DNA of 54,394 nt, from the IMG/VR virus record IMGVR_UViG_2541047847_000004. The stretch is one strand, 5' to 3'. A model generated the notes under the pieces. The model searched no databases. It was not told where the DNA came from and was given only the letters and a program-made list of their open reading frames with translations. The translations under genes and the position numbers were made by a program. This document shows positions 1-54,394 of the stretch, one piece after another. Source of the stretch: a virus. Lineage: Duplodnaviria > Heunggongvirae > Uroviricota > Caudoviricetes. The stretch's first letter is position 1, and every line of letters starts with the position of its first letter.

Positions 1-1209
1 ATGTCGGTTTTTCATAACTGGCTGCTTGATATCGCAAGCGGGAATTACTTTATCTACATCAAACGCCTTTCTGCAAACGACACTGGCGCAACAGGTGGCC
101 ATCAGGTCGGACTTTATATCCCCTCAAATATCGTTGAAAAGCTTTTTCCATCTATCAATCATACTCGCGAACTGAACCCTTCAGTCTTCCTTACTGCGCA
201 TGTATCATCCCATGATTGCCCTGATACCCAAGCACGCGCAATTTATTACAACAACCGTTATTTTGGTAAGACCCGAAACGAAAAAAGAATTACGCGCTGG
301 GGGAGAGGAAGTCCATTACAGAACCCTGAAAATACAGGAGCTCTCACAATTCTTGCTTTCAGGTTAAACGAACAGAACACTGACTGTTCCGAGGTAGATA
401 TATGGGTCTGCGTCAATCCCGATGAAGAGGATATCATCGAGTCTGCTATTGGCGAAATCATACCTGGAACCCTAATTTCCGGCCCTGCCGGACAAATTTT
501 GGGCGGATTGTCTCTTCAGCAAACTCCAGTAAATCATAAATATGTTATTCCTGAAGACTGGAAGAAGCGTTTTCCTTCTGGAAACGAAATTATTCAATAT
601 GCTGCTGGCCATTATGCTAAAAACTCCAAGGATCCAGATGAGCAACTGATTGACCGTCGGCGTGTCGAGTATGATATTTTTCTACTCGTCGAGGAATTAC
701 ATGTTCTTGATATTATTAAGAAAGGATTCGATTCTGTAGATGAGTTTATTGCATTAGCCAACTCTGTCAGTAATCGACGTAAATCAAGGGCAGGTAAATC
801 ACTTGAACTTCACCTAGAGAAGCTTTTTATCGAGCACGGACTACGGCATTTCTCCACTCAGGCAGTTACTGAAGGTAATAAAAAACCAGATTTCCTGTTT
901 CCTTCAGCAGAGGCATATCATAACGCTGAATTTCCTGTAGAAAACTTACGTATGCTGGCAGTAAAGACCACCTGCAAAGATCGCTGGCGTCAGATACTGA
1001 ATGAAGCAGATAAAATCCATCAGGTACATTTATTTACGCTGCAAGAAGGTGTTTCTTCAGCACAATACCGAGAAATGAAAGATGCGGGTGTCAGACTCGT
1101 TGTACCATCAACTTTACATAAAAAATACCCAGAAGCAGTTAGAGAAGAATTAATAACGCTCGGAGCATTCATTACTGAGCTGATAGAACTTTACACTGAA
1201 CTATCATAG
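1..1209 (+). CDS. ecoRIIR: Type IIE restriction endonuclease, EcoRII-like
   Basis: 402-aa ORF starting at base 1; N-terminus MSVFHNWLL...YIKRLSANDTGATGGHQVGLYIP matches my memory of EcoRII; convergent with a Dcm-like methyltransferase. Confidence 0.75.
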   Translation: MSVFHNWLLDIASGNYFIYIKRLSANDTGATGGHQVGLYIPSNIVEKLFPSINHTRELNPSVFLTAHVSSHDCPDTQARAIYYNNRYFGKTRNEKRITRWGRGSPLQNPENTGALTILAFRLNEQNTDCSEVDIWVCVNPDEEDIIESAIGEIIPGTLISGPAGQILGGLSLQQTPVNHKYVIPEDWKKRFPSGNEIIQYAAGHYAKNSKDPDEQLIDRRRVEYDIFLLVEELHVLDIIKKGFDSVDEFIALANSVSNRRKSRAGKSLELHLEKLFIEHGLRHFSTQAVTEGNKKPDFLFPSAEAYHNAEFPVENLRMLAVKTTCKDRWRQILNEADKIHQVHLFTLQEGVSSAQYREMKDAGVRLVVPSTLHKKYPEAVREELITLGAFITELIELYTELS

Positions 1210-1214
1210 GCTGA

Positions 1215-1237
1215 CTCCCGGCTTAAAAGGCCGGGAG
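1215..1237. terminator. GC-rich hairpin between the convergent R and M genes (possible bidirectional terminator)
   Basis: ctcccggc-ttaaaa-gccgggag inverted repeat in the 34-bp gap; no clear U-run on either strand. Confidence 0.35.
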
Positions 1238-1243
1238 GTGTTC

Positions 1244-2677
1244 TCAAGGCTGCCCAGTCTTACCAGCATCAGCAGAAACAGCTTTGAGGATATAGGGTTC
1301 CAGAAGTCTGGCAACGGCTTCAAATACTGGCACCACAACGGAGTTACCGAACTGCCGATATGACTGAGTATCTGAAACCGGAATACGGAATGGTTTCCCT
1401 CCAGGTTTTTCAAACCCCATAAGGCGTGCGCACTCTCGGGGAGTCAGCCTGCGTGGTCGACGAGCCTGGTTACTCTCATTCATAAAGTCAGCCTCTCCCG
1501 TTGCCATATCCCAACCACGATCAATAAGAATTTCTGATCCGTCTTTGTGATATCTGGCAGAAAGTGTGCGTGCAATGCTTTCCTTATTCTCAGGATTGAC
1601 CAACCCAAAGCCAAAACCATTCCCCTTGGCTGCATGCTTTTTGGCGTAGTTATAAAGGTACTCCCATAGTTTTGGCGTAAGTATATATTTACTGTCGACT
1701 ACAGGCTCCAGCAATTCACCAAATGATGGGCGGTGTTCCGGATAAAAACGACTGATATCACGCAAGGTAAACCCCTTGTGAATATTCAGATCTCGTCTAA
1801 ATCCGACCAGAACAATGCGTTCACGATGCTGAGGCAAAAAATGCTTCCCATCGATAATCTTTGGATCGTTTTTTCCCATTTCTGCAGCATCGGCAACTTC
1901 GTAGCCCAGCTCGTCAAGGGTCTCCATAATGACTTTGAAAGTTTTACCCTTATCATGGCTCTTCAGATTTTTGACATTTTCCAGCACAAAAATTGCCGGT
2001 TTTTTTGCTCGTATAATACGTGCCACGTCAAAAAAAAGTGTTCCTTGTGCTTCACATTCAAAACCATGCGCACGACCAAGTGAGTTTTTCTTACTAACAC
2101 CAGCAAGGCTAAATGGCTGGCACGGGAACCCCGCAAGAAGCACATCATGATCCGGCACATGCTCATCAATATATGCATAAGCATCCGTTTCCAATACATC
2201 GGTTTTATCACTCAGCGTGACTTCCCGAATATCGAGATTGAATTTATGCACCTGTTCATCGTTAAACCAGTTGGCCTTGTATGTACGCACAGCATCTTTA
2301 TTCCATTCACTGGTAAAAACACACTGACCTCCAATGGCCTCAAAACCTTTCCGTATCCCTCCAATTCCAGCAAATAAGTCAATGAAGCGGAAAGCATATT
2401 CCGGATGGTTTGCAGGTGGTTCTGGTAGCATCTTACGCAGAAGAGACTCTTCTACTGAAGTCAACGATTTTGGTAAACACTTGCCATTAATCCAGCGGTT
2501 AATGGTTTCACGGCTCCACTCATTTTTTCCGACTTTTCTCAGTAATTCAGCCACATACTTCTGATCATAGATTTCCAGCACTTTCTCGATAAGCTTTTTA
2601 TCATTTTCCTGTCGCAGCTTTTCTTCCGCCTCGGCTTCCTTCAGCAGATGCTGTGCCAACACTTCAAATTCAGACAT
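1244..2677 (-). CDS. ecoRIIM: DNA cytosine-5 methyltransferase (Dcm / M.EcoRII-like, CCWGG)
   Basis: Motifs [15 protein letters not shown] (motif I), GFPCQPFS (PC motif IV), ENVKNL (motif VI), strong resemblance to E. coli Dcm. Start moved to internal ATG at 2677 (GGAGGA Shine-Dalgarno upstream, gives 477 aa); ORF track start is 2719. Confidence 0.85.
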
Positions 2678-2895
2678 AATTCCTCCAAGGGGTCTAATGG
2701 GTGAAACTTTATCACTCATTCAACCCAGAAGGAAATGTTTTATCTGGATATTTAAACAGTGACTACAACGTAATCTAGCACTGGTGATGCTTTGTTAGGC
2801 ATAGAGAATCATTCTATATACGACTAATGACAGAAAAACAGCAGACAAGTAGTTTGTTCATAAATTAACGCATACAACGTGCCTGCGGTTTTTGA

Positions 2896-3852
<957 letters not shown>

Positions 3853-3909
3853 GTCTTTAAGTGATAAGCATAAACCGCAGCACGATCTTGCATACGACGT
3901 GCTACGGTT

Positions 3910-4464
3910 TCATTTATCTCCGACCGGAAACTTCTTATACAGTGTCGATATACCAACATCATAGATGATCGCCACCTTCTGGCGAGGAACGCCTGATGCA
4001 ATTAATCGCCCGGCCTGCGCCCATTGTTCTGGTGTAAGTTTGGGACGACGTCCACCAATTCGTCCCTGTGCGCGAGCAGCTTCCAGTCCAGCTTTTGTTC
4101 GTTCAACAATCAGTTCTCGTTCCATTTCAGCCAGGGCACCCATCACATGAAAGAAAAAACGCCCCATCGGTGTGCTGGTATCAATAGCATCCGTCAGGCT
4201 GCGAAAATTAACGCCACGTTCGCGCAACTCCTCAACCAGAATGACCAGATGCCGCATACTACGCCCTAGCCGATCCAGCTTCCAGACAACCAGAGTGTCA
4301 CCTGCCGATAATGTCCTGAGCAGTTTTTTCAGTCCCGGCCTTTCGGACTTTGTACCGCTTATCTTGTCTTCAAAAATCAGCTCGCATCCTGCACAGTTCA
4401 GCGCATTACGTTGTAGATCTGTGTTCTGGTCATTTGTTGACACACGTACATAGCCAATAAGCAT
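3910..4464 (-). CDS. pin: Serine recombinase / DNA invertase (Pin/Gin/Hin family)
   Basis: MLIGYVRVSTNDQ... catalytic-Ser N-terminus and C-terminal HTH typical of Pin; start set to the ATG at 4464 (184 aa) rather than track start 4500. Confidence 0.9.
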   Translation of the reverse strand: MLIGYVRVSTNDQNTDLQRNALNCAGCELIFEDKISGTKSERPGLKKLLRTLSAGDTLVVWKLDRLGRSMRHLVILVEELRERGVNFRSLTDAIDTSTPMGRFFFHVMGALAEMERELIVERTKAGLEAARAQGRIGGRRPKLTPEQWAQAGRLIASGVPRQKVAIIYDVGISTLYKKFPVGDK

Positions 4465-4490
4465 GGTAGATCTCCCTGACAAAAGCAGGA

Positions 4491-5039
4491 ATGATGCCAT
4501 TTGCTCGTTATTTCTGCATTTTCATAAACGTTGGTTTGGGAGAAGGTTCAGCATTACCTGTTGGTGCACCTGTTCCGTGGCCTTCAGAGACACCTCCAAC
4601 AGGCTGGCTGAAATGCAATGGAGCAGCTTTTTCTGCTGAAGAATATCCGGAACTGGCAAAGGCTTACCCGACAAATAAATTGCCTGATTTACGTGGTGAG
4701 TTTATTCGTGGCTGGGATGATTCTAGAGGGATTGATACGGGGCGTTCATTGCTAAGTGGTCAGGCTGCAACATTTATTCGTACAGCTTTGCAGGATTATT
4801 ACGGTTACGATCTGAATACTAATGTCAAAGTAGGTATCGCTTTTGCTACTGCTGATTCTGTTATAACCGTTGGAAACCCAGCTAATCCTAAAGCAGGAAA
4901 TAATAGCGATTATGTTCCTGCATCAGCAGATAACTCCATAATGGGTACTCAAAGGACAGCGGAGGATAATTTTACCGGGGCATGGATATCAATGCGCCCT
5001 CGTAACCTTTCATTTAATTACATCGTGAGGGCTGCATAA
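4491..5039 (+). CDS. Alternative tail-fibre C-terminal cassette (StfE-like), silent in the current orientation
   Basis: Encodes NVGLGEG... directly from the crossover site; lacks its own N-terminal fibre part; the track start at 4491 lies outside the segment so the real coding portion begins near 4546. Confidence 0.55.
   Translation: MMPFARYFCIFINVGLGEGSALPVGAPVPWPSETPPTGWLKCNGAAFSAEEYPELAKAYPTNKLPDLRGEFIRGWDDSRGIDTGRSLLSGQAATFIRTALQDYYGYDLNTNVKVGIAFATADSVITVGNPANPKAGNNSDYVPASADNSIMGTQRTAEDNFTGAWISMRPRNLSFNYIVRAA
4526..4545. repeat. Left inversion crossover site (pix/gix-like)
   Basis: aaacgttggtttgggagaag is the reverse complement of the 6418-6438 site (19 of 20 positions). Confidence 0.65.
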
Positions 5040-5641
5040 TGGATAATGCCGTATTAAATAGCGAGTTTATTGCCACGAAGGCGGGGGATATTACTGTCTA
5101 TAATTATAATGGTGAAACACGAGAATATATTTCCACATCAACTGAATATCTTGCTGTTGGTGTCGGTATTCCGGCATGTTCCTGTTTAGATGCACCAGGA
5201 ACATATAAAGCTGGTTATGCCATCTGCCGCTCTGCGGATTTAAACTCATGGGAATATGTGCCAGACCATCGCGGAGAAATCGTCTATAACACCGAAATGG
5301 GAGACGCCAAAGAAATCACAACTCCGGGTGATTACCCCGAAAATACAACCACTATCGCCCCATTAACGCCATACGATAAATGGGATGGTGAGAAATGGGT
5401 GACCGATACTGAGGCACAGCATCACGCCGCAGTAGACGCGGCAGAAGCACAGCGTCAGTCACTGATTGATACTGCAATGGCTTCCATTAGTCTGATTCAA
5501 CTGAAATTACAGGCTGGGCGGAAGCTGATGCAGGCAGAGACCTCCCGACTTAACACTGTGCTGGATTACATTGACGCGGTGACGGCAACAGATACCAGCA
5601 CCGCGCCGGATGTCATCTGGCCTGAACTGCCGGAGGAGTAG
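5039..5641 (+). CDS. tfaE: Tail fibre assembly protein (TfaE-like)
   Basis: 200 aa, follows the StfE-like cassette; typical Tfa N-terminus and C-terminal ...TSTAPDVIWPELPEE. Confidence 0.65.
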   Translation: MDNAVLNSEFIATKAGDITVYNYNGETREYISTSTEYLAVGVGIPACSCLDAPGTYKAGYAICRSADLNSWEYVPDHRGEIVYNTEMGDAKEITTPGDYPENTTTIAPLTPYDKWDGEKWVTDTEAQHHAAVDAAEAQRQSLIDTAMASISLIQLKLQAGRKLMQAETSRLNTVLDYIDAVTATDTSTAPDVIWPELPEE

Positions 5642-6053
5642 GCCATTCAATATCTGGCGCACTGGAAGTATCGACCAGCTCCAGTGCGTCCAGATAATCC
5701 AGCCACAAATTATATTGCGCCAGTTCCTCACCTTTCAGACGACCAATAGCCGCTTTACCAGCCCATTGTTTACTGTTCATATAATCGTTGGCCTGATTAA
5801 TCAATTGCTGCTTTTTCAGTTCGGCTGCAGCAATCTGTTCCTCATGTGTTGGTGGTGGAATTTCAGACCATGCAGGAAAACCATTTTCTCCAGCGATACG
5901 GATTTTTCCTTTCGGCGGTAATCCGGAAAACTCAATATACACTTGCTCATCAACTTCAACAGCATCATCTGGCCATGAGTCAGCTTGCGTGTAATCCTCT
6001 TTCATCTCCAAGGGATAGAAAGAGTTTGTAGTCGCGGAATATATGTAATTCAT
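5613..6053 (-). CDS. tfaP: Tail fibre assembly protein (TfaP-like)
   Basis: 146 aa downstream of the expressed fibre gene; 3' end overlaps tfaE convergently (5613-5641). Confidence 0.6.
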   Translation of the reverse strand: MNYIYSATTNSFYPLEMKEDYTQADSWPDDAVEVDEQVYIEFSGLPPKGKIRIAGENGFPAWSEIPPPTHEEQIAAAELKKQQLINQANDYMNSKQWAGKAAIGRLKGEELAQYNLWLDYLDALELVDTSSAPDIEWPTPPAVQAR

Positions 6054-6079
6054 TTTTCACTCCATAAAGTTAAAAGAAA

Positions 6080-6721
6080 TTAACACCCTAATGCGAAAAA
6101 TGAAGCACCGATACCGGGTACGCCTGCTCTGGAAATAAATTTCACCGGGTCCTGGTTATAACCGGCACAAGCTATATAGCCAACATTTGCACTGCCGGGA
6201 GTGTAATCCTGAGTCGCAAATACCCGCAGACATCTATTCGGAAATGCAATCGGAAAATAGGTTACTGTGTCCTGAGACGTCAGCGGAACATCAATTGGCC
6301 CCCATTGAATAATTAAACCGGATGGCAATTTTTGATATCCAGGAACTGAAGCAGAAAGCATAAAACTACCCATATCAGGTATCTGATTCGCCCCTGTCCC
6401 TACATTTCTTTTAGCCGCTTCTCCCAAACCAAGGTTTTCGAGAGCCGTTTTCACGGTGCCATCCGATTTGATATCGTCAAACGGATTCTTGCGGCTTAAC
6501 AGCAGCGCACGAAGCGCGGTAAGCAGCTGGTCATGCCGCCCCTTCTCCAGGCTGGCACCGGATGCCTCCACCACGCCACAAAGCTCTTCCTGCAACATGT
6601 CAAAGTAGTCATCATCCAGATCGGTGGCAGGCGTGCCAGTCTGGGGGTTACCACGGGTAAAACCGTTCTTACCCGCGCCGAACTTATCCTTCTGCGCGGT
6701 TTTCGTGTCTATACGATGCAT
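6080..6721 (-). CDS. stfP: Side tail fibre protein (StfP-like); C-terminal ~113 aa lie inside the invertible segment
   Basis: 213 aa; the crossover site encodes ENLGLGEA at the constant/variable junction. Confidence 0.7.
6418..6438. repeat. Right inversion crossover site
   Basis: cttctcccaaaccaaggtttt, inverted copy of 4526-4545, located inside stfP. Confidence 0.65.
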
Positions 6722-6724
6722 GGA

Positions 6725-7309
6725 TTACTCCGGATATTTAAAAATTACGTAGGTATGCGACGGGCAGAGTTTGTTAAGCACACACTCGACAACGGTGTCA
6801 CCCCAGATACGCAGTGCGGAATCACAGGGATCGCCACATGTCATCCAGGTGGTGTTGGTGGTGGTTGGCATGTTGACCTGCCAGTAATACCGCCATTCCG
6901 GCGCATTCACCGCGTCAGTACAGGCCGATGAGCAGGTGAACGTGCTTTTGTCGTATCGCGTGATGGTGGCATCTGGTCTGCCCAGGGCAGCAAGCTGTGC
7001 AAGATAAAAATCCTCGTTGATGCCGCCCGCCAGGTTAACCTTCGCATCCAGCCGTTGCTGACGCTGGCGAAGGGTCTGCGTTCCCGCCGGAATACATTCA
7101 TCCGGCAGACCGCACAGACGCTCCCAGCGGTTTATCAGTTCAGTGGTGGTGCGCGGATCCAGCTCCCGCATCAGGGCATCCGCACGCTGATGAACACGGG
7201 TTAATGACGGTGCCGCACCGGCAATCGCCGGATCGCTGGCTGACCACGCCGGACCAGGCGGCAACAGTGCCGATAACAGGCGGATGTAATCATCGTTTGT
7301 CACGTCCAT
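6725..7309 (-). CDS. Phage tail protein (YmfQ / Mu gp48-like)
   Basis: 194 aa immediately upstream of the tail fibre gene, same length and position as e14 YmfQ. Confidence 0.6.
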
Positions 7310-8358
7310 GAAATCGTCCCCAGTACCGCCAGTTCGTTTTTCGCAATGGAGATATTGTCCACCGGTGCAAGCAACTGATGGCTGTATTCCCCGTTCGCAC
7401 CGGAAATCGCCTCACTGATACGCGATACCTTCAGTTCTCCCTGCGGATAACCATCACGCAGCAGGAACGAACGCAACTCCGCGGTAATGGCAGCCCGTAT
7501 TTCCGGTGTGTCCGGCGTCACGCGGATATGAAAATCCACCGTATGTGCCACCGGCCTGAATACATACAAATCAGAGCCTGCCACCGGGGCCAGTGGCCCG
7601 ATATGTTGTCTTGCTGCCGTTTCCGTTGATTCTTCCGGAATGGGATTAATCAGGTCACTGCTGGCAATCATCACACCGACAGTTCCCGTTCCCATCCAGT
7701 GACGGTATGTCCATGCGCGGGTAATGCCGGGCACTTCTTTAGCCCAGACGACATAGTCCCCGTCAGCCCCGCCCTGAGGCGTCCAGTAATACCGCTCAAT
7801 GACGCGGGCGCGCCACGTTTCCAGCTCTTCAGTATCAAATCCACCTGTCAGGGTATCTGCCACGCCGGAAGACGGCAGACCATTAACCGGCGTGACCAGG
7901 ATTAATGACGTACCGTCGTCAGCGTTACCGACCGCGCCTGCACTTGAGCAGGCGATCGGCACGCGCAGGACACCACCGGAGCTGGTTGCATCGGCAGTTG
8001 CCGTGTACTGAACCAGGTCATCGCGCTGAATAACACTCCCGGCGGTCACCTTCAGGCCATCGCTGACACCTTCCCAGCGCATATACCCGCTGGCAGCCGT
8101 GGCCCCCTTGCGCGGACACCGTTTCATCGCAGCATGTCGCGCCAGCCAGGACTCATCGCACAGGTCAGGCAGCATGTTCATTGCCAGATAATCGATGTAC
8201 CCGTAAACCGTATGCAGCGCCGCCGCATACACCTTTGCCCGCACGTCTTCATCCATGCGCCGGAGCGTGTCGCTGACGTCCAGCCTGGCGAATAAATCGT
8301 TACGGAGCATACTGATATTTTCTGCCAGCGTCGGGCGCTGAAATTCACTGTCCGCCAT
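7300..8358 (-). CDS. Baseplate J-like protein (Mu gp47-like)
   Basis: 352 aa in a conserved Mu-like baseplate gene order. Confidence 0.7.
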
Positions 8359-36539: not shown

Positions 36540-36647
36540 AAATCAGCACGTACGAATTCAAACTCTGCCATAAAAGAACATATAAGTAATTTATTAACAT
36601 ATAGATATAGGTTATATTACAAATTGAAAAATTATTGGAGAGCAACA

Positions 36648-37514
36648 ATGAATCAAAATCCATTCTCATTCTATGACTTTCTTGGATATTTAATACCAGG
36701 TGGTTTTTTTATCCTATTAATGTATTTCTGTGGTTTGACATTCGATCTAGATATTGTTATTGACTTAAGTGAATTACTCAGAGGTCAAAGTCAAATCTTT
36801 GGCATTTTGAACTACGCTTCAATAGTTATTATATCTTATATAGCTGGACATTTTATTTCTATCACGTCAGCATTTTTTATCGAAAAATACATGAATAAAG
36901 AATTAGGATATCCTTCCAAATATCTATTTAAAAAATTGATAGATACCTCAGAAAGCATTTGTAGCCCATCATGCGATGAGAGAAGCGCTGATAAAAAAAC
37001 AAAAATAAAGAATCGCATAATCAAATGCGTATTATGTCCAATAATACTATGGGATTTTATAACACAAAAACTATGTTATTCTCAATCTCTACCATTTCAT
37101 TTAGCTAATACAACATGGTTAATGATCAAAGAAGGTTATGAGAAAAAGTTCATAACAAATCGCCAATTATTACAAGATAAAAACGGACTTGATGATGATC
37201 TCTTCAGATTGGCATATCATTATGTTTATGAGTTTTCAAAACAACATCAAACAAAAATTCAAAACTATGTTGCATTATATGGTTTTTGCAGAAACATATG
37301 TTTAATCTTTATAATTTCATTTTGGGTATCAGTTCCAACCTTTATTTATCGATTATGTACTCATAGTGATTATCTTTATAGTTTACTTTCAATAATGCTT
37401 AGCTTTTTCTTCGTCTATGTTTTCTATGTTGGTTTTGTTAAATTTTATAGAAGATATACTTTAGAAGTATTAATGGCATTTGCTGTACTTCAAAGTAACG
37501 ACACTATTCGTTAA
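36648..37514 (+). CDS. Polytopic membrane protein of unknown function (AT-rich moron)
   Basis: 288 aa from ATG 36648 (GGAG upstream); at least four hydrophobic helices; markedly lower GC than flanking phage genes. Confidence 0.5.
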   Translation: MNQNPFSFYDFLGYLIPGGFFILLMYFCGLTFDLDIVIDLSELLRGQSQIFGILNYASIVIISYIAGHFISITSAFFIEKYMNKELGYPSKYLFKKLIDTSESICSPSCDERSADKKTKIKNRIIKCVLCPIILWDFITQKLCYSQSLPFHLANTTWLMIKEGYEKKFITNRQLLQDKNGLDDDLFRLAYHYVYEFSKQHQTKIQNYVALYGFCRNICLIFIISFWVSVPTFIYRLCTHSDYLYSLLSIMLSFFFVYVFYVGFVKFYRRYTLEVLMAFAVLQSNDTIR

Positions 37515-37516
37515 TA

Positions 37517-37762
37517 ATGTTGCTCCCGTGTGCAGACGGGATAATGGAGAAACGTATGCTGAACCTCGATTGTGTTCCTATCTCAACTTATTGCAAAGAA
37601 ACTGGCGAAACTCCTGAAGCAATAAACAAACGTGTACAGCGCGGTGTTTGGCGTGAAGGTGTTCAGGTTTTAAAGGTTGAAGGCGTTAAGGAGAGGTGGA
37701 TTGATCTTAGTGAGGTTGCAAAATGGGCCAGACAAAACTGCTCAAACTACCGCGCGGCGTAA
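37517..37762 (+). CDS. xis: Excisionase-like protein
   Basis: Small basic ORF directly upstream of and overlapping int; alternative start at 37556 (GGAG + 6 nt). Confidence 0.5.
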   Translation: MLLPCADGIMEKRMLNLDCVPISTYCKETGETPEAINKRVQRGVWREGVQVLKVEGVKERWIDLSEVAKWARQNCSNYRAA

Positions 37763-38895
37763 CAATCAGGAAACACCGCCAGGGAGAAACGATCAATATA
37801 ACTTTCACCTACAAAGGAGTTAGATGTCGTGAGCCGCTTTCCAATCTGGAAGTAACACCAAAGAACATTAAATACGCCGAGCGTACACTCGGCGAAATCC
37901 ATAATAAGATCGAAAGGGGAACATTCATTTATGCAGAATATTTTCCCCGTTCTGCTCGTTTGAAAATTTTTGGTAATGCTGCTGCAGGCAAAACGGTAAA
38001 GGTGTACCTGGACGAATATCTTGAAATCTGCGAAACAAGAAAACTTTCACCCTCTACGATTGGTGGCTATAAAAAATGCCGTAGTGCGTTAGCCTCACTT
38101 CACATTTGCCCTGCAAGTGAATTAACACCAGCAACCCTGAAAGCGTGGATTCAAAGCCAGAAAACAACCTTAAAAACCATTCGCAACCAGTTATCTTTCC
38201 TACGGTCAGCACTTGATGAAGCCGTGACCGATGGGGTACTTCAAATTAACCCCGTATCGTTAGTAACAGCTTCGCGCTACCAAAGTGATAAGTCAGAAGC
38301 AGAAAGCAGCTATGTGGTTGATCCGCTATCACCAGCAGAAGTTGATGCATTACTAGCAGCAGCCGGAAACAAACAATGGGAAAATCTGTTCCGGTTCGCC
38401 ATACATACAGGCCTGCGTAGTTCTGAATTATGTGCCCTACGATGGCATGATATCGACTTTGTTGGAAAAACAGCCCATGTTCAGAGCGCAAGTGTTGTCG
38501 GAGTTATCAAAGGAACAAAGACAAAAGCCGGTACCCGTAAAGTTGAACTGACTGAAGAAGCAATGTTGGCGTTGATAAACCAGAAGCCATTTACATTCAT
38601 GAAGGATGCTACTGTCTTTGAAGATCCAAAGACCAATAAACCCTGGGCAAGTGCTGATGCAATTAGGAAAAAAGCATGGGTGCCAACATTGCGAAAAGCA
38701 GGTATTCGTTACAGAAACCCATATCAAACCAGGCATACATTCGCCACCAGCCATATCAGCCGGGGAGCAAACCTGTTTTGGCTTGCGGCTCAAATGGGCC
38801 ATAAAGGGCCTGAAATGTTATTCAGGCACTATGGACAATACTTGAAAGAGTATGATGGGAGGGCAAGTATCAAGGATAAAAAGGCTTTATTTTAA
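37723..38895 (+). CDS. int: Tyrosine integrase (prophage)
   Basis: 390 aa; C-terminal R...H..R...Y catalytic pattern (HTFATSHISRGANLF...LGHKGPEMLFRHYGQY). Confidence 0.85.
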   Translation: MGQTKLLKLPRGVTIRKHRQGETINITFTYKGVRCREPLSNLEVTPKNIKYAERTLGEIHNKIERGTFIYAEYFPRSARLKIFGNAAAGKTVKVYLDEYLEICETRKLSPSTIGGYKKCRSALASLHICPASELTPATLKAWIQSQKTTLKTIRNQLSFLRSALDEAVTDGVLQINPVSLVTASRYQSDKSEAESSYVVDPLSPAEVDALLAAAGNKQWENLFRFAIHTGLRSSELCALRWHDIDFVGKTAHVQSASVVGVIKGTKTKAGTRKVELTEEAMLALINQKPFTFMKDATVFEDPKTNKPWASADAIRKKAWVPTLRKAGIRYRNPYQTRHTFATSHISRGANLFWLAAQMGHKGPEMLFRHYGQYLKEYDGRASIKDKKALF

Positions 38896-39504
38896 GTCAT
38901 TATGCCAATCGTCTACTGTTTGAAACCAAATTTTTAACCTTTGCATAAAGGTACGATCCTTTTTGGGAGGGTGGTACCTTTGAAAAGAAGTATGTAACGC
39001 TTCGATAACTCCCATACAAGCATCAATTACTTCTTGTGCTTTAACCGGGCGATCGGTATCTGAAAGCTTGTGAGCGACCTCACAATCCAGAGTTGCTTTC
39101 TCTAGTACAGATGAGAACACCTCGTCAGGTATATACAGTCCTCTGCTTTCCAAAATGCAAATCAGTTTGGAAACTTGTTGAGCTTTAGCCAAGATAGTTA
39201 ACAAGTATGAAACAGAAGCCTTTGTTCTATCCTTTTGCAACCTTAACAATCGATGCTTTGATGCTCTAATTTTAGGTTGAGTTGTCTGACTGAGCCAATA
39301 GTTAGAAGAAATATCAGAAATTTCAATAACTAACTTTGAAATAGCATCAATAATTGATTTCGATTCAGAACGTGTCGCCAGTTTTACAGAATTATTGTAC
39401 GCAACTCGCCATCCAATGAAAACTAAGCAGACGCTAACTACTGTGATACACCACGAATACTGTCCTATTTGTGCTACTAATGACATTGGTTCCGTACTGA
39501 TCAA
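38887..39504 (-). CDS. Membrane-anchored protein, third gene of GHKL operon
   Basis: 205 aa, single N-terminal TM helix (WCITVVSVCLVFIGW) then largely helical soluble part; 10-nt gap to upstream gene; 3' end overlaps int 3' end. Confidence 0.45.
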   Translation of the reverse strand: MISTEPMSLVAQIGQYSWCITVVSVCLVFIGWRVAYNNSVKLATRSESKSIIDAISKLVIEISDISSNYWLSQTTQPKIRASKHRLLRLQKDRTKASVSYLLTILAKAQQVSKLICILESRGLYIPDEVFSSVLEKATLDCEVAHKLSDTDRPVKAQEVIDACMGVIEALHTSFQRYHPPKKDRTFMQRLKIWFQTVDDWHNDLK

Positions 39505-39514
39505 CTATCGCCTC

Positions 39515-39841
39515 TTATACTCTTTCTGGTTGTGCTAAATCAATAAATTTATCAATCTGTTCTTTGTAGAACGGAACATCACTTTTTATAATCAAACGTG
39601 CTTTAACGTTGGCTTTAGGTATCCCTTCCTTACGGATGAGACCTCCAAACGCCTCTTCTAAGAAAGAGGAACCAACACCCAGTGCTATACCGCGAAAATC
39701 AACCACAATCTCCTGTTCAGTACCCTTCAGCGCAGGCACCAAAAACTCTCTACGAAATCTTTCCGCACTGTGTGGGCTATCCGTTGTGTAACGTCCGAAA
39801 GGTGTTCTGGAGAACTCCTTCGCTATGACGATATTTCTCAT
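39515..39841 (-). CDS. Small soluble protein, possibly STAS-like (DUF4325-type)
   Basis: 108 aa; 4-nt gap from upstream GHKL gene; family guess from memory of sequence pattern, unverified. Confidence 0.4.
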   Translation of the reverse strand: MRNIVIAKEFSRTPFGRYTTDSPHSAERFRREFLVPALKGTEQEIVVDFRGIALGVGSSFLEEAFGGLIRKEGIPKANVKARLIIKSDVPFYKEQIDKFIDLAQPERV

Positions 39842-39845
39842 AAAA

Positions 39846-40757
39846 TCATCTCCTGGGAACCAGCGACCATTGTAGTAAAGTACCCGGTATGTACTCAGCT
39901 AGCTTCTCACATCGAGGACTACTGTCATTAGAATTATAGCTATAACGAGCCCTTCCTGTTAGTATCAGAAGTGTCTCATTATCCTCACAACCTGCCCCAA
40001 TAGGTCTCTTGATATCTTCAGAGCCATTTCCCCGTCCGGAACCAACAAAGCGGGATTCCCCTACTAACATAGCTCTTTCCACAGAAGATACTTCGTTTTG
40101 AATGCTATGACCATCACCATTAGGCACGAAACTTCTATAAATCCCCAATCCAAGGTCACAAACGATAAAAACGACTTTATTTTCATCACGATTGAACCAA
40201 GCGCACTGCCACCATCGTTTACCTTTGAGAAGCTGAATATCTGACTCGAACCCCTCATCTTCATACGCATGATGAGAAACATTGAGCAAAGCTTCACTAA
40301 TCGCTGTCAGCAGTAAGCCTAACTGTTCATTATTAAGCAGAGCACTTTTCTGCAGCATGAGTACTGTTTCAACAATATGCTCGTAAGGTTCGACAGCTGA
40401 CTGAAAGTATCGTTCCTCCCTCGTAAGTGCATTCAGTTTCTCTTCTGTGCCAGCAAGCAAAGCACGAGCAAGTCCAGTACCAACGATCCATCTATGCCCA
40501 GATGGGTTATCATCCTTTTTAGGCCATTTAAAACGTATAAAATTAGGGTCCCGGGTTAAAAATTGAGCTCTATTTACTATGGCAAAGAACAGTACCGATG
40601 CCGCAGCTGAGGCAAATTTTACCTTGGACAAATCAACTATAACTCGACCTTTATTTTTTACTCCAATCGATTCAATCGAGTTGATGAAGTTCAATGTCCC
40701 AGCCCTAGAATCATCTGAGTAAATGCAAAATTTGCTTGGGGGTACCAGTATGGTCAT
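39846..40757 (-). CDS. GHKL-superfamily ATPase (histidine-kinase-like ATP-binding domain) with unassigned N-terminal region
   Basis: N-box SEALLNVSHHAY, G1 box VCDLGLGI, G2 box GSGRGNG in order in the C-terminal half; no HisKA/dimerisation domain or receiver visible. Confidence 0.55.
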   Translation of the reverse strand: MTILVPPSKFCIYSDDSRAGTLNFINSIESIGVKNKGRVIVDLSKVKFASAAASVLFFAIVNRAQFLTRDPNFIRFKWPKKDDNPSGHRWIVGTGLARALLAGTEEKLNALTREERYFQSAVEPYEHIVETVLMLQKSALLNNEQLGLLLTAISEALLNVSHHAYEDEGFESDIQLLKGKRWWQCAWFNRDENKVVFIVCDLGLGIYRSFVPNGDGHSIQNEVSSVERAMLVGESRFVGSGRGNGSEDIKRPIGAGCEDNETLLILTGRARYSYNSNDSSPRCEKLAEYIPGTLLQWSLVPRR

Positions 40758-40909
40758 AGCGATGTCATTCTTATACGATGGATTTATAGATTATCTACTA
40801 TTCATAGTTGGTTATGAAGACTGGGATATAACAGTAAAAGATACGTGTAAGATCCGCAAGATAGTTAATGTCGAAAAAAATCATTAATTACATCAAGTTA
40901 GTGATATTT

Positions 40910-40941
40910 GGACTCGGGTTCAACTCCCGCCAGCTCCACCA
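40910..40941 (+). repeat. ssrA: 3'-terminal fragment of tmRNA gene ssrA (attachment-site repeat)
   Basis: GGACTCGGGTTCAACTCCCGCCAGCTCCACCA matches the T-arm/acceptor 3' end of E. coli tmRNA; upstream sequence is unrelated AT-rich DNA, so only the att core is present. Confidence 0.7.
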
Positions 40942-41055
40942 CTTGCTCTTCCGGATACGTCCGGAGAAATCCTGAAAGCCCGCATGGCACAAGCTTTGCG
41001 GGCTTTTTTGTGTCTATCTTTGTCCGAGGATATCCAGCTAAATCCAGTGATTATT

Positions 41056-41125: not shown

Positions 41126-42319
41126 GTGGCACGTACAACACGCCCTCTTACTAACACTGAACTATCACGTGCTAAAGCAACTGAAAAGGATCTAACGCTA
41201 CATGATGGTGATGGGCTTTTTCTACTCATAAAAACGAACGGAAGGAAGTTGTGGCGTTTCCGATACCAGAAGCCTGTATCAAAACAGAGAACCATGATTA
41301 GTTTAGGAACGTTCCCCGCCCTATCTCTGGCTGAGGCCAGAAACGTGCGTGCTGAGTATCTTTCCTTATTAGCCCGGGGTATTGATCCACAAACATACAG
41401 TAAGCAAGTCTCAGAACATCAACAGATTGCGATTGATAGTATTTTTTCAAAAGTTGCCACAAATTGGTTTGCCATAAAAAGCAATAACGTCACACCTGAT
41501 TATGCAAAGGATATATGGCGATCCTTAGAGAGGGACATTTTCCCTGCTATCGGTGAGATTCCTGTTCAGGAAATAAAAGCCCGCACATTAATTGAAGCCC
41601 TAGAGCCAATTAAAGCTCGTGGGGCACTTGAGACTGTTCGTCGTTTAGTACAACGTATTAATGAAATTATGATTTATGCTGTTAATACTGGTCTGATAGA
41701 TGCTAACCCTGCTTCAGGCATTGGTATGGCATTTGAAAAACCTAAAAAACAGCACATGCCAACGCTTAGACCTGAAGAATTACCGAAACTCATGCGTTCA
41801 ATAACAATGTCTAATTTATCTATTCCAACTCGTTGTTTGATTGAATGGCAACTCTTAACACTTGTACGCCCTGCAGAAGCTTCCAATGCAAAGTGGATAG
41901 AGATCGATTTCGAAGCTAAACTATGGATAATACCAGCCAATAGAATGAAGGCAAAGCGGGAACATATTGTTCCATTATCACTTCAGACATTAGATATTCT
42001 TGAAATTATGAAGCCAATCAGTTCACATCGAGAATATATTTTTCCTAGCAGGAATAACCCCAATCAACCAATGAACAGTCAGACGGCAAATGCAGCCTTA
42101 AAGCGCATCGGTTATGGTGGTAAGTTGGTTGCACACGGACTGCGTTCGATAGCAAGTACAGCAATGAATGAAGCTGGTATAAATCCAGATATTATCGAAG
42201 CAGCACTTTCCCATTGTGATAAAAATGAGGTTAGAAGAGCATATAATCGAACAACCTACTTGGAACAAAGAAAAGAGCTTATGAATTGGTGGGGTAGTTT
42301 CATTTCAAAAAACAAATAA
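41126..42319 (+). CDS. int: P4-type tyrosine integrase
   Basis: 397 aa from GTG; N-terminus MARTTRPLT...LHDGDGLFLLIKTNGRKLWRFRY typical of P4-family integrases next to ssrA. Confidence 0.9.
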   Translation: MARTTRPLTNTELSRAKATEKDLTLHDGDGLFLLIKTNGRKLWRFRYQKPVSKQRTMISLGTFPALSLAEARNVRAEYLSLLARGIDPQTYSKQVSEHQQIAIDSIFSKVATNWFAIKSNNVTPDYAKDIWRSLERDIFPAIGEIPVQEIKARTLIEALEPIKARGALETVRRLVQRINEIMIYAVNTGLIDANPASGIGMAFEKPKKQHMPTLRPEELPKLMRSITMSNLSIPTRCLIEWQLLTLVRPAEASNAKWIEIDFEAKLWIIPANRMKAKREHIVPLSLQTLDILEIMKPISSHREYIFPSRNNPNQPMNSQTANAALKRIGYGGKLVAHGLRSIASTAMNEAGINPDIIEAALSHCDKNEVRRAYNRTTYLEQRKELMNWWGSFISKNK

Positions 42320-42329
42320 GGATATAGTG

Positions 42330-43445
42330 ATGAATAATAAAGATTTTCCATGCAAAGCCTCAAATATCTATGATAAAAATATAAATTTTTTATTTGGCTC
42401 AGGCTCCTCTGCTTCATATATTCCTACTCTCTATCTAGATAAAAACACTACTTATGAAACATTACTTACACATGAGGATTGTGAGGGTGTCAAGGACTTC
42501 ATATTATGTTCTTATTTCAATAATATCATTAGAAAAACATTTTGTGTTAAACCTAATAGTGAAGACAAAAAATATAATTCTACTTTAGCAAACTATAGCT
42601 ACTTTATTGATGAACTAATCAAATTATTAGAGAAAAAAGGGGCAAATCAAATAAGGCGAGCGAATATTTTTACAACAAATTATGATCTTTTTTTCGAAAC
42701 TGCGGCTGATGATATTTTAAATAATAAAACATTTCATTTCAATGACGGTGGTCTAGGTTTCAAAAGCCGGAAATTGAACATTAGTAATTTTCATATTACT
42801 GCTTGGCATCAAGGTACGCATGATATGTACAAACATGAAATTCCAACAGTAAACTTAATAAAAATGCATGGTTCTGTTTCTTGGTGTAGAGATATTAATG
42901 AAACGATTAGTATTAATTACACTCAAGAAGAACCACCAAAGTTTAGACTAGATACAAAAAAAGACATTAATGATTTAGTCACCACCTTAAACGAAACAAG
43001 CGATAATCTCGTTAGTTATTTAAATTTATCTACAAGCGATCAAGAAACACTTCAAGAATTTAAATCTTATTACAACAACTTAGCTATAGTTAGCCCAACT
43101 AAAGAAAAATTTTCTGAAACTGTTTTTCAACAACATTATTACCAATGTTTACGATTGCTAAGTTATGAATTAGAGAAACCACAAACTGTATTAATTTGTT
43201 TTGGTTTTTCTTTTCAAGATGAACACATACGTGAGATTATAAAAAGATCATTAAGTAACCCTACTCTTAAGGTCTTTGTTTTTTGCTACTCAAAATCCAG
43301 CATGGAAAGTATACAGCACATTATCAATGACCAACGAATAACCTATATTCTTCCTATAGAAGATGATCATACAATTTCATTTAAACCGTTTATAGATAGA
43401 GTATTTAGATCTGAACACGGAGATTGGATTACATGGAAGAACTAA
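42330..43445 (+). CDS. SIR2-family NADase-like protein (defence pair with HerA)
   Basis: FLFGSGSS (Rossmann GxGxS), TTNYD and KMHGSVSW motifs characteristic of SIR2 domains; AT-rich; start at ATG 42330. Confidence 0.7.
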   Translation: MNNKDFPCKASNIYDKNINFLFGSGSSASYIPTLYLDKNTTYETLLTHEDCEGVKDFILCSYFNNIIRKTFCVKPNSEDKKYNSTLANYSYFIDELIKLLEKKGANQIRRANIFTTNYDLFFETAADDILNNKTFHFNDGGLGFKSRKLNISNFHITAWHQGTHDMYKHEIPTVNLIKMHGSVSWCRDINETISINYTQEEPPKFRLDTKKDINDLVTTLNETSDNLVSYLNLSTSDQETLQEFKSYYNNLAIVSPTKEKFSETVFQQHYYQCLRLLSYELEKPQTVLICFGFSFQDEHIREIIKRSLSNPTLKVFVFCYSKSSMESIQHIINDQRITYILPIEDDHTISFKPFIDRVFRSEHGDWITWKN

Positions 43446-45205
43446 TTGTTGGTAATGTTACCCAAATAAAGGGCACAACAGTAAGGGCCAAAATCAATCA
43501 TGACTTTTTTCAGTCAACATACTTTCATAAAGGTAAAATACTACGAGGTATCTCTATAAATGAATTTGTTTTGATTAAAAAAGGTTATCACGATATCGTC
43601 GGAAAGATTATTGGTGAAGAAATTGTTGAAAACATCAATATTAGAAGCGATGAAATTGAACAAAAAAAATATGACCGTTTTGTAGAACTGAATATTTTAG
43701 GGTATTTTTTTGAGAGTTCATTTTATTCCGGTATAAAATTTTTACCAATGATAAATGACAGCTTACACTTAATTTCAGACGAGAAGATATCAGAAATATA
43801 TAAGTTTAGCAAAAACACTAAAGCACCTTTAATAAACATAGGGAAATCTATGTTAGAGGAGTTGCCAATTAACATACCAATAAATGGTATTTTTAATTCA
43901 CACATAGGCATATTTGGAAACACTGGAAGTGGCAAGTCCAACACTCTTGCAAAACTTTATCACTCTCTAATAAACCTTATAACAACAAAAGAAAGAGTTA
44001 TATCAAAATCAAGTTTTGTTTTGATTGATTTTAATGGTGAATACAGCACATTTGCTACGTCATTTCCAGATTTGTGCGAACAAGTCAATCTCAACACAAA
44101 GAATTCCGGTGATAAACTAACTTTCACTGATGATGAATTTTGGGATGATGAATTATTATCGGTATTGTTTTCTGCAACTGAAAAAACTCAAAAGCCATTT
44201 CTTAGTCATTTAATTAAAAATAGAGAAAAATATAATGGTAAATTGGAGGATTACTTACAAACAACTATCCACAGTATGTTTTCTCCTAATCCACACAGGG
44301 AAACAATAAATTTATTAAAAAGCCTTGCCCCTTACTTTTCAGAGAGAGCACAGGGTAAAATACTTGAAGAGTTATCACAATTCTCATGGCATTCTGGGCA
44401 AAATAAGTATTTGCACTCAAAATACAACTTCATTGATAAAATGGAAGATGCTTTACAGGCTTTAGATGCAACATATAAATCCAAGTTTAAGTTAAACAGC
44501 GTTTTTGATGAAGTTGCAATCCGATCTATTCTACAACTAATTAATTCAGTATCACGTAATTATGTACAATATGATCATATATATCCGCTAATTAATAAAA
44601 TAACGGCAATGACTCCTGCCCTATCCAAAGTAATTAATATCAGAAACGAAACAAAAAATAAAAAACCTATATATATAGTGTCATTAAAAGAGTGCAATCA
44701 ATTAATCAAAAAAACCATTCCAATGATGCTTGCAAAATGTTCATTCTTAGAGCACAAGTCATCTAAAAATACAAAGGAAAGCTTCCACCTAATTATAGAT
44801 GAAGCACACAACATATTGTCTGAAACATCTGTCAGAGAGGCGGAAACATGGAAAGATTATAGGCTTGAGTTATTTGAGGAAATAATAAAAGAGGGAAGGA
44901 AGTTTGGGTTCTTCGTTACAATTTCGAGTCAACGACCTTTTGACATCTCTCCCACAATTGTTTCCCAACTTCATAATTATTTTATTCATCGATTAGTGAA
45001 CGAAAATGATTTGTTTTTGTTAAAAAATACTTTAAGCACCCTTGATGCGGCATCAAGATCACTAATTCCAACACTTCCTCCTGGTGGGTGTATAGTTTCA
45101 GGAACAGCTTTCCACACCCCATTACTTGTTCAAATCGACAGATTAGCTGAGGAAAATGCTCCTAACAGCGATACTCTTGATTTAGAAAAATTGTGGGATA
45201 TTTAA
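43433..45205 (+). CDS. herA: HerA-like ATPase
   Basis: Walker A GNTGSGKSN and Walker B HLIIDEAHN; overlaps SIR2 stop; start at ATG 43433 (track TTG 43424). Confidence 0.75.
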   Translation: MEELIVGNVTQIKGTTVRAKINHDFFQSTYFHKGKILRGISINEFVLIKKGYHDIVGKIIGEEIVENINIRSDEIEQKKYDRFVELNILGYFFESSFYSGIKFLPMINDSLHLISDEKISEIYKFSKNTKAPLINIGKSMLEELPINIPINGIFNSHIGIFGNTGSGKSNTLAKLYHSLINLITTKERVISKSSFVLIDFNGEYSTFATSFPDLCEQVNLNTKNSGDKLTFTDDEFWDDELLSVLFSATEKTQKPFLSHLIKNREKYNGKLEDYLQTTIHSMFSPNPHRETINLLKSLAPYFSERAQGKILEELSQFSWHSGQNKYLHSKYNFIDKMEDALQALDATYKSKFKLNSVFDEVAIRSILQLINSVSRNYVQYDHIYPLINKITAMTPALSKVINIRNETKNKKPIYIVSLKECNQLIKKTIPMMLAKCSFLEHKSSKNTKESFHLIIDEAHNILSETSVREAETWKDYRLELFEEIIKEGRKFGFFVTISSQRPFDISPTIVSQLHNYFIHRLVNENDLFLLKNTLSTLDAASRSLIPTLPPGGCIVSGTAFHTPLLVQIDRLAEENAPNSDTLDLEKLWDI

Positions 45206-48099: not shown

Positions 48100-48497
48100 T
48101 GATGCCCGCTCTGCAAAAACGCCCTTTTTCTGGCTTGCCTTTTTCCGGCATTTGCGGATATAGTTTTTCCGCTGCCGCAAAATCGGCAGCCGGGCGTGGA
48201 AACCCGAGCAATTCACAGGCGACATATGACGCGCCATGCGTCTTTTTTTGTGTCGCAATCAACGCCACAGAGCGCCAGATTATGGTGTGGTGTGTGGTCA
48301 GTCGTGCAGATGGCATTCCGTGCATCCTGCCCGCGTCCGCTCATTATGCCGCAGAGTCAATGGTAGCTCAGGCGGGGCAGCCTCCGGGCTGGCCGGTATC
48401 CTGTGAAGCCGGTATTTCCACCCCCGTCTGGGCTATCGCCATCGAGCGTGGAAACTCCGGCGATAGCGTTATTTGCTATTCACAGGAGGCTGCCATC

Positions 48498-53317: not shown

Positions 53318-54394
<1,077 letters not shown>

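Follow-up and report, generated by a model that had tools for sequence, protein, structure and literature searches.

A prophage-borne STAS-GHKL kinase, DUF4325 protein and membrane protein as a candidate kinase-gated toxin-antitoxin-like module

We describe a cassette of three genes, here called g1, g2 and g3, that lies at the end of an E. coli prophage in the Caudoviricetes record IMGVR_UViG_2541047847_000004 (a stretch of 54,394 nucleotides, the whole of which we call the window). The cassette encodes a putative serine kinase with a STAS-like and a GHKL domain (g1), a DUF4325 STAS-like protein (g2) and a predicted single-pass membrane protein (g3). A related operon, vapKSC of Escherichia sp. 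E4736, encodes a damage-activated kinase (VapK, STAS-GHKL, 302 amino acids) that phosphorylates a STAS antitoxin (VapS, STAS plus a C-terminal helix, 116 amino acids) and thereby frees the PIN toxin VapC (Chambers et al., EMBO J 2026, PMC13373217). We give an about even chance to one reading of the cassette: a toxin-antitoxin-like module of the abortive-infection type, carried by the prophage and gated by a kinase, in which the VapKSC architecture has a membrane effector. The domains, the ATP site, a conserved serine, a topology signal, synteny and the cargo-slot context support this reading. The cassette is a good candidate, and its function is unproven. A preliminary description, made from the sequence alone, had suggested a toxin-antitoxin-like module or a partner-switching sensor with a membrane effector; the same idea is the best reading here.

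The three open reading frames (ORFs) run head-to-tail on the minus strand and span 40757 to 38887 in the ORF list. g1 (39846-40757) encodes 303 amino acids and g2 (39515-39841) 108 amino acids, both from an ATG start. g3 (38887-39504) encodes 205 amino acids from a TTG start, which has AGAGG upstream at a spacing of 6 nt. The Prokaryotic Genome Annotation Pipeline (PGAP) picks an alternative ATG at 39486, 6 codons downstream, giving a protein of 199 amino acids. The tight packing noted in the preliminary description is present in the ORF list, with gaps of 4 nt between g1 and g2 (39842-39845) and 10 nt between g2 and g3 (39505-39514). The described convergence with int is also there: the last 9 nt of g3 overlap the 3′ end of the prophage tyrosine integrase gene (37723-38895, plus strand; "site-specific integrase" in PGAP), the Salmonella counterpart of which carries Arm-DNA-bind_2 and Phage_integrase domains. 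The G+C content of the cassette segment is 0.41, compared with about 0.55 in the prophage structural genes. Upstream of g1, an AT-rich leader of 152 nt (40758-40909, minus strand) likely contains the promoter. A consensus scan offers TTCATA-17-GATAAT (40818-40790, minus strand) as a candidate, by inference only, and the promoter/terminator scan around the operon yielded no enrichment over shuffled sequences.

The conserved residues identify g1 as an anti-sigma-kinase-type GHKL ATPase whose ATP site is intact. The GHKL/Bergerat ATP-binding domain covers residues 124-300 (39858-40388, minus strand) and bears the N-box (40295-40263), G1 (40157-40143), G2 (40034-40014) and G3 (39884-39879) boxes. 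Their residues, E155-x3-N159-x3-H163-A-Y in the N-box, D201-L-G203-x-G205 in G1, R242-G243-x-G245 in G2 and G292-T293 in G3, are invariant in 22 homologues. We also aligned 149 representatives of the broad g1 family, the best members of an exhaustive hidden Markov model (HMM) search. The motif residues overall are kept in 139-149 of the 149, and E155, N159, H163, D201, G203, G243 and G245 in every one (149/149). The AlphaFold2 (AF2) model of g1 (predicted local distance difference test, pLDDT, 85.8; predicted template modelling score, pTM, 0.88) consists of an N-terminal alpha/beta domain followed by an ATP-binding sandwich. Comparing this model with the PDB by Foldseek, we find that the C-terminal half resembles the ATP-binding domains of GyrB, TopoVI-B, Hsp90 and CheA-P4 (probability 0.9-1.0). 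The E-values are weak (3e-4 and up), and the template modelling scores are low because only half of the model aligns. The ordered N-box, G1 and G2 motifs that the preliminary description had read as a GHKL ATPase are therefore present, invariant and matched by a Bergerat-type fold, and the domain calls bear out its remark that g1 has neither a receiver nor a phospho-acceptor domain. The HMM searches that it had proposed as a check gave a split result. They assigned DUF4325 to g2 above the gathering cut-off, and left g1 under the cut-off of Pfam HATPase_c_2 (22.9 bits, E 9e-5; cut-off 27.4 bits). A PF13581 match is precomputed for some g1 homologues.

What the preliminary description missed in g1 is an N-terminal STAS-like domain of its own. 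Residues 1-121 (40395-40757, minus strand), marked by the motif DLSKVKFASAAASVLFFAIVNRAQ, form a beta-alpha-beta-alpha-beta unit modelled with pLDDT >90 by AF2. This domain bears a STAS-type strand-loop-helix motif (DLSKVKFASAAASVLFF) and aligns with the region of VapK that its authors term STAS; a single g1 homologue carries the UniRef name "STAS domain-containing". As a separate observation, residue 50 of g1 (40610-40608), inside this domain, is Ser or Thr in 117 of the 149 family members. It stands 8 residues past the conserved Asp, as against 9-10 for the serine in VapS, SpoIIAA and g2, and VapK has no Ser at the equivalent position. This residue could be an autophosphorylation or pseudosubstrate site.

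We compared the cassette with VapK and VapS, whose sequences are contained in the AlphaFold3 file of Chambers et al. Against the 149-sequence g1-family profile, VapK scored 57.8 bits (two-sequence search, E 1e-19); the aligned part, VapK residues 33-290, takes in the STAS region. With hhalign, the narrow g1 alignment matched VapK at E 1.6e-4 (probability 51%); we prefer the broad-profile HMM alignment because the N-terminal part of the hhalign result looked shifted by one beta-alpha unit. From the broad-profile score and the span of the alignment, g1 and VapK are remotely homologous in sequence and agree in architecture and length. The family around g1 is large: searching 1.84 billion representatives by HMM, we find 2313 clusters (50% identity) at E <= 1e-3, 1179 at E <= 1e-10 and 100 at E <= 1e-30. 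The members are almost all 290-390 amino acids long and align end to end. In PHROGs, the cassette matches phrog_3364, phrog_5816 and phrog_30059, all families of unknown function.

No other feature of the cassette is as strictly conserved as the kinase active site, and structure comparison of g3 gave no identifiable toxic fold. Both facts would suit a different division of labor, in which g1 itself is the effector. Once triggered, it would broadly phosphorylate host or phage proteins, with g2 as a pseudosubstrate inhibitor and g3 as a membrane tether or sensor. Stk2-type defence kinases are reported to phosphorylate proteins broadly in this way. However, the GHKL serine kinases typified by SpoIIAB, RsbW and CapK are known to be dedicated to their STAS partners, and the third gene of VapKSC is the toxin. 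We regard a kinase effector as very improbable.

The second protein, g2, matches Pfam DUF4325 (PF14213) at 51.9 bits (E 6e-14; gathering cut-off 23), and all of its 108 amino acids are accounted for by this family. The STAS-like fold suspected for g2 in the preliminary description is thereby supported. VapS belongs to the same family (E 2.7e-17 against Pfam DUF4325). VapS neutralises VapC, and the phosphomimetic substitution S48E abolishes the neutralisation (PMC13373217). By both BLASTP and MAFFT, Ser58 of g2 (codon 39670-39668) aligns with this Ser48. Ser58 lies within GSSFLEEAFGG at the N-terminus of helix alpha-2. It is near-invariant among the homologues, being Thr in one sequence, and the motif GSSFLEEAFGGLIR is almost invariant. 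Ser58 occupies, by alignment, the site that is phosphorylated in VapS (Ser48), CapS (Ser54) and SpoIIAA (Ser58), and we consider it the candidate phospho-acceptor of g2. Independently of this, g2 matches just the final 100 positions of phrog_5816, a profile of 441 residues, suggesting that some phage proteins carry a C-terminal DUF4325 on a far longer protein.

The third protein, g3, has zero matches in Pfam, NCBIfam and PADLOC. A hydrophobic helix at about residues 16-35 (39459-39400, minus strand) is followed by a four-helix bundle that is predicted to be cytoplasmic. In the AF2 model (pLDDT 78.6), a long helix of residues 17-72 opens as the hydrophobic segment and leads into the helical bundle. 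The single N-terminal transmembrane helix and the helical soluble domain that the preliminary description had given to g3 agree with this model. The flank on the N-terminal side of the hydrophobic helix is short and net negative, and that on the C-terminal side is net positive. By the positive-inside rule, these charges predict an N-out/C-in topology, with which the bundle would share the cytoplasm with g1 and g2. We also noticed a juxtamembrane motif, KLATRSESKS (residues 41-50; 39384-39355), at the predicted cytoplasmic face of the membrane. It is serine-rich and invariant among the enterobacterial g3 homologues, the remainder of g3 diverging fast.

The divergence of g3 (29-37% identity where g1 has 43-58% and g2 51-73%) raised the question of whether it contacts the phage. 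A phage-contacting protein is expected to diverge in this way, and g3 could then be a Sie/Imm/Cor-type blocker of DNA entry or of a receptor, usually directed against relatives of the prophage. g1 and g2 would tune such a regulated superinfection exclusion, and no killing would be involved. The int-att junction is a typical place for prophage morons, g3 is predicted to be an inner-membrane protein, and a narrow range of temperate targets would explain the negative panel of 24 phages described below. On the other hand, nearly all of g3 is cytoplasmic by the positive-inside rule, with about 15 residues outside, which makes it a poor blocker at the surface or in the periplasm. Copies of the cassette are known outside prophages too, in defence-island contexts on chromosomes, and its nearest characterised relative is a toxin-antitoxin system. 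Superinfection exclusion is an unlikely explanation in our judgement.

The trio of genes is conserved as a unit. Performing a degenerate-pattern scan of species-representative genomes, with narrow patterns, we obtained 9 loci, all of which keep the order g1-g2-g3 (9/9). We then widened the survey through distant g2 homologues and the exhaustive kinase-family HMM search, reaching 18 loci besides the window. The full trio is present in all 18 (18/18), a set that ranges from Enterobacterales to Acinetobacter, Pasteurellaceae and Rhodospirillaceae. Among the distant loci added are Acinetobacter baumannii, a Rhodospirillaceae integrative element, several metagenomic contigs and Salmonella. In these 18 loci, the kinase has 295-391 amino acids, the DUF4325 protein 101-128 and the third protein 122-209. 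The genes of the distant loci overlap or stand a few bases apart, and their third protein is without a Pfam match. The third gene of the Pasteurellaceae loci encodes a shorter protein (122-150 amino acids) that retains the N-terminal hydrophobic helix. Counting the window, which brings the sample across Proteobacteria to 19 loci, this helix is found in 19/19 third-gene products and a net positive C-flank in 17/19. The same trio is tabulated for the inducible Francisella phage KIRK, in which a 293-amino-acid hypothetical protein, a 112-amino-acid DUF4325 protein and a 125-amino-acid transmembrane protein lie between the repressor and the integrase (PMC7924643).

The pairing of a GHKL kinase with a STAS protein could also mean a classical partner-switching regulator, in which g1 would sequester a transcription factor, g2 would be its antagonist and g3 a membrane sensor. 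The output of such a switch would be gene regulation and not toxicity. Neither a sigma factor nor a PP2C phosphatase is found in the window or in the Pfam-annotated gene lists of the related loci. We rejected a classical RsbW/RsbV module on both counts, and the regulator reading in general seems to us highly improbable.

We also looked at the genomic surroundings of the cassette. A CPS-53/e14-like prophage of lambdoid/Mu-tailed type makes up the left 41 kb of the window. Beyond the cassette leader lies a partial copy of the 3′ end of ssrA (tmRNA), a 32-nt sequence at 40910-40941 (plus strand) that forms the attachment (att) core and is recognised from the sequence and from E. coli annotation. 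The ssrA terminator follows at about 40975-41010 (plus strand), and the homologous ~100 nt are annotated as ssrA in other E. coli genomes. The 32-nt sequence is present once in the window, and no complete tmRNA or tRNA gene is found within it, so that the second copy lies outside. The attachment repeat of the preliminary description is thus right for the ssrA copy at 40910-40941, and its partner copy is not in the window.

Between the integrase and ssrA lies a swappable cargo segment of about 2 kb (38859-40898). Matches to the sister prophages end at query position 2259 (window 38858), and ssrA-only matches begin at query 4300/4307 (about 40899); from this stop and restart of homology we define the segment as a discrete slot. 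In three sister genomes, the same slot is filled by an AAA ATPase and a methylase matching PD-Lambda-5_B (E 1e-123), or by AbiLi and AbiLii (E 4e-101 and 5e-29). The claim that the genes are accessory cargo at the prophage end is borne out by these AbiL and PD-Lambda-5 occupants. The Salmonella counterpart carries a 52%-identical allele of the cassette in the same slot, with variable DNA past it. The cassette occurs at >=80% coverage in 126 of 5426 complete E. coli genomes, always on the chromosome and always beside this integrase. The same integrase, 95-99% identical, is found in several hundred further genomes, in which homology breaks off and restarts at the two borders of the slot. Outside prophages, relatives of the cassette occur in chromosomal defence-island contexts. 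One of them (metagenomic contig, 1-8262) lies between an LmuB_C/CTD7/MC3 cluster with a type I restriction-modification (R-M) S subunit and AbiEii/AbiEi, and others adjoin Mrr/HinfI R-M genes or a PvuRts1I-like enzyme. In this small sample, the surroundings are of the kind in which defence systems are found.

Within E. coli and Salmonella, the cassette keeps to a single lineage of prophage integrase. This tie would also fit a module that serves the addiction or life cycle of the prophage itself and responds to DNA damage or stress; its kinase would sense single-stranded DNA (ssDNA) at SOS induction, and its freed g3 would act on the membrane. Lysis timing, a block of superinfection during induction and post-segregational stabilisation are possible roles. 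CapK, the kinase of the CapK-CapS pair, is activated by ssDNA from DNA repair, the same cue is proposed for VapK, and the authors stress that CapK-type modules respond to a global stress signal (PMC13373217). The negative result in a defence screen, given below, points the same way. However, sister prophages fill the same slot with bona fide defence systems, a placement that such a role alone leaves unexplained, and relatives exist without any prophage. We consider a purely prophage-serving role improbable.

Returning to the kinase-gated toxin-antitoxin-like module, we propose the following course of events by analogy with VapKSC. In a resting lysogen, unphosphorylated g2 would be bound to the cytoplasmic domain of g3, and g3 would be inert. 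An infection or DNA-damage cue would activate g1, and the activated g1 would phosphorylate g2 at Ser58. The phosphorylated g2 would release g3. The free g3 would then self-associate in the inner membrane, or perturb or depolarise it, and so arrest or kill the cell before the phage cycle ends. Since no phosphatase is encoded, the switch would be one-way.

Several points weigh against this proposal. Kinase activity, g2-g3 binding and g3 toxicity are predictions for this family, drawn from its relatives. Against the narrow g1 profile, VapK scores 15.4 bits only, a remote similarity. The C-terminal helix of VapS (residues 94-116) extends to the VapC active site and is required for the inhibition of VapC (PMC13373217). 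g2 ends about 24 residues before VapS and is without this inhibitory tail, so that any inhibition of g3 must work differently. Phe54 of VapK, an aromatic residue at the STAS-GHKL interface that is implicated in ssDNA sensing (Trp68 in CapK), aligns by sequence with Phe48 of g1. The family has K, Y, E, F and R at this variable position, and the trigger may therefore differ from ssDNA. A tblastn search of 50,697 deposited phage genomes gave no match to the cassette, and one of plasmids gave 2 weak matches and nothing more.

A published phage test of the operon also counts against the proposal. Table S6 of the DefensePredictor study (DeWeirdt et al., Science 2026, PMC13092281) has an entry for a transcription unit "VPUS" composed of WP_000060412.1, WP_001244589.1 and WP_000154254.1. 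These are the PGAP accessions of the 100%-identical cassette copy in strain F8, so VPUS is the same operon. According to that table, VPUS was predicted to be defensive (maximum log-odds 5.75, category "structural defense homolog"). It was tested in E. coli MG1655 from a low-copy plasmid, under its predicted native promoter, with 24 coliphages. The outcome is given as defensive = FALSE: none of the 24 phages showed a >=10-fold drop in efficiency of plating or a change in plaque size (PMC13092281). The preliminary description had said that the lack of a phenotype on phage challenge would count against its proposal, and the VPUS result partly goes that way. The negative screen is real evidence against a broad defence function, and it does not settle the matter. 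In the same screen, 42 of 94 units were validated, and its authors caution that a non-validating unit may require other phages, hosts or boundaries (PMC13092281). The clone MG1655 pCV1-VPUS appears in their strain list and was used for the plaque assays. That such a clone could be obtained fits a self-inhibited module, provided that the operon was expressed. For vapKSC, about 2 logs of protection were reported against Bas42, the one phage reported (PMC13373217); Bas42 was not found in the DefensePredictor supplementary text that was searched. The searched text and supplement of PMC13092281 contain neither a domain analysis of VPUS nor a link from it to VapKSC.

A wider form of the same proposal is that the cassette may be the founding member in E. 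coli of a large and as yet unnamed family of kinase-gated immune modules, in which a STAS "antitoxin" controls a membrane-anchored helical effector by phosphorylation and protects only against phages outside the standard panels. We hold this tentatively, at somewhat less than an even chance. Since the family does not conserve the aromatic residue of the sensor, a trigger other than ssDNA is possible; the phages concerned may be, for example, temperate relatives or T5-like phages of the Bas42 type. The kinase-STAS chassis has been known since 2026, the operon has been flagged and tested but not named, and we did not find its membrane-effector version described. If functional, the cassette would make the kinase-STAS switch a general, effector-swappable immune control module that is not confined to PIN toxins or transcription, and phosphorylation-released membrane effectors would join the abortive-infection mechanisms. 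The analysis gives a concrete mechanistic motive to re-test a DefensePredictor candidate that did not validate. The 2-kb int-ssrA slot of this common E. coli/Salmonella prophage lineage, which exchanges AbiL, PD-Lambda-5 and the cassette, is a good place to seek further systems.

Other parts of the window carry variable or mobile genes. Just upstream of int, 36624-37514 encodes a 296-amino-acid protein with multiple hydrophobic segments (GC 0.35-0.38) that matches phrog_12528 and, weakly, Csx27 (PADLOC E 1.4e-5, NCBIfam E 0.02). It is missing from many sister prophages, in which homology begins only at 37525, and its place is another variable cargo slot. Immediately on the other side of the ssrA att core, the window holds a further mobile element, a P4-like satellite (41126-45205, continuing to about 53000), with an integrase (41126-42319), sid and a primase-helicase; glaH begins at 53417. 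The satellite carries SIR2 (42327-43445) and HerA (43424-45205) genes of GC 0.30-0.32, matched in PADLOC at E 4e-65 and E 1e-192, respectively. Rfam places the C4 antisense RNA, its a1/b1 target and isrK at 48158-48443 inside this element. At the opposite end of the window, low-GC genes encode an EcoRII-type restriction enzyme with EcoRII-N and EcoRII-C domains (1-1209), a Dcm-like C5 methylase (1244-2719, minus strand) and a GIY-YIG protein (3028-3852). The segment 1-3852 could represent defence cargo of the other prophage end or else flanking chromosome. A serine invertase (3910-4500, minus strand) stands beside oppositely oriented genes for a tail collar, tail-fibre assembly and a tail-fibre C-terminus (to 6721), and 3910-6721 resembles the invertible host-range segments of Gin/Cin systems.

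Finally, we compared the cassette with known systems. The preliminary description had not recognised its combination of genes, and no PADLOC model fits it; the chassis of a STAS-GHKL kinase and a DUF4325 protein was nevertheless published in 2026 (CapK/CapS and VapKSC, PMC13373217). Searching PADLOC-DB v2.0.0, we find zero families at E <= 1 for g1, g2 and g3, and the same library does detect the neighbouring SIR2, HerA, AbiL and PD-Lambda-5 proteins. For want of a PADLOC match, the 3HP system of Rousset et al. and other named systems were rejected. Pfam and NCBIfam give nothing for g1 and g2 beyond their domain calls. Among solved structures, no CapS or VapS chain came up in a sequence search (the best match is a weak one to RsbW, E ~1), and no CapS/VapS entries (9Z71-9Z7O) are among the g1 Foldseek matches listed from a PDB fold library to 2026-04-08. 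In the literature on DUF4325/STAS-like defence and on anti-phage partner switching, no description of the membrane variant was found.

With SpoIIAB-SpoIIAA and RsbW-RsbV, the cassette shares a GHKL serine kinase and a small STAS substrate, and the N-box, G1, G2 and serine positions match. In contrast to these pairs, it lacks a sigma factor and PP2C, its kinase has a STAS-like domain of its own, and a membrane protein comes third. The proposed logic is like that of RexAB and of the transmembrane effectors of CBASS and Pycsar, in which a cytoplasmic sensor activates a small membrane protein and the membrane collapses. No kinship in sequence or fold with these systems is known, and the proposed activation works by phosphorylation of an inhibitor and not by a nucleotide signal or a protein complex.

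CapK and CapS, transcriptional controllers of CBASS, Bub and Thoeris operons (PMC13373217), likewise combine a STAS-GHKL kinase with a STAS partner, which is phosphorylated on a conserved serine where helix alpha-2 begins. An additional N-terminal helix-turn-helix (HTH) domain is present in CapK and a C-terminal winged HTH domain in CapS, and the pair lies upstream of the immune operon that it represses. The cassette, in contrast, has no HTH domain in g1 or g2, and the next gene downstream is the convergent integrase, with no immune operon. Membership in CapKS was rejected for this lack of HTH domains. VapKSC stands closest: both are three-gene operons with the same gene order, the same two-domain build of the kinase and proteins of similar length (303 amino acids for g1 and 302 for VapK, 108 for g2 and 116 for VapS). 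Neither operon has a phosphatase or an HTH protein, and both are often found near defence genes. The two differ in the third gene, which is a PIN nuclease in VapKSC and a single-pass membrane helical bundle here, in the window and in 18/18 related loci.

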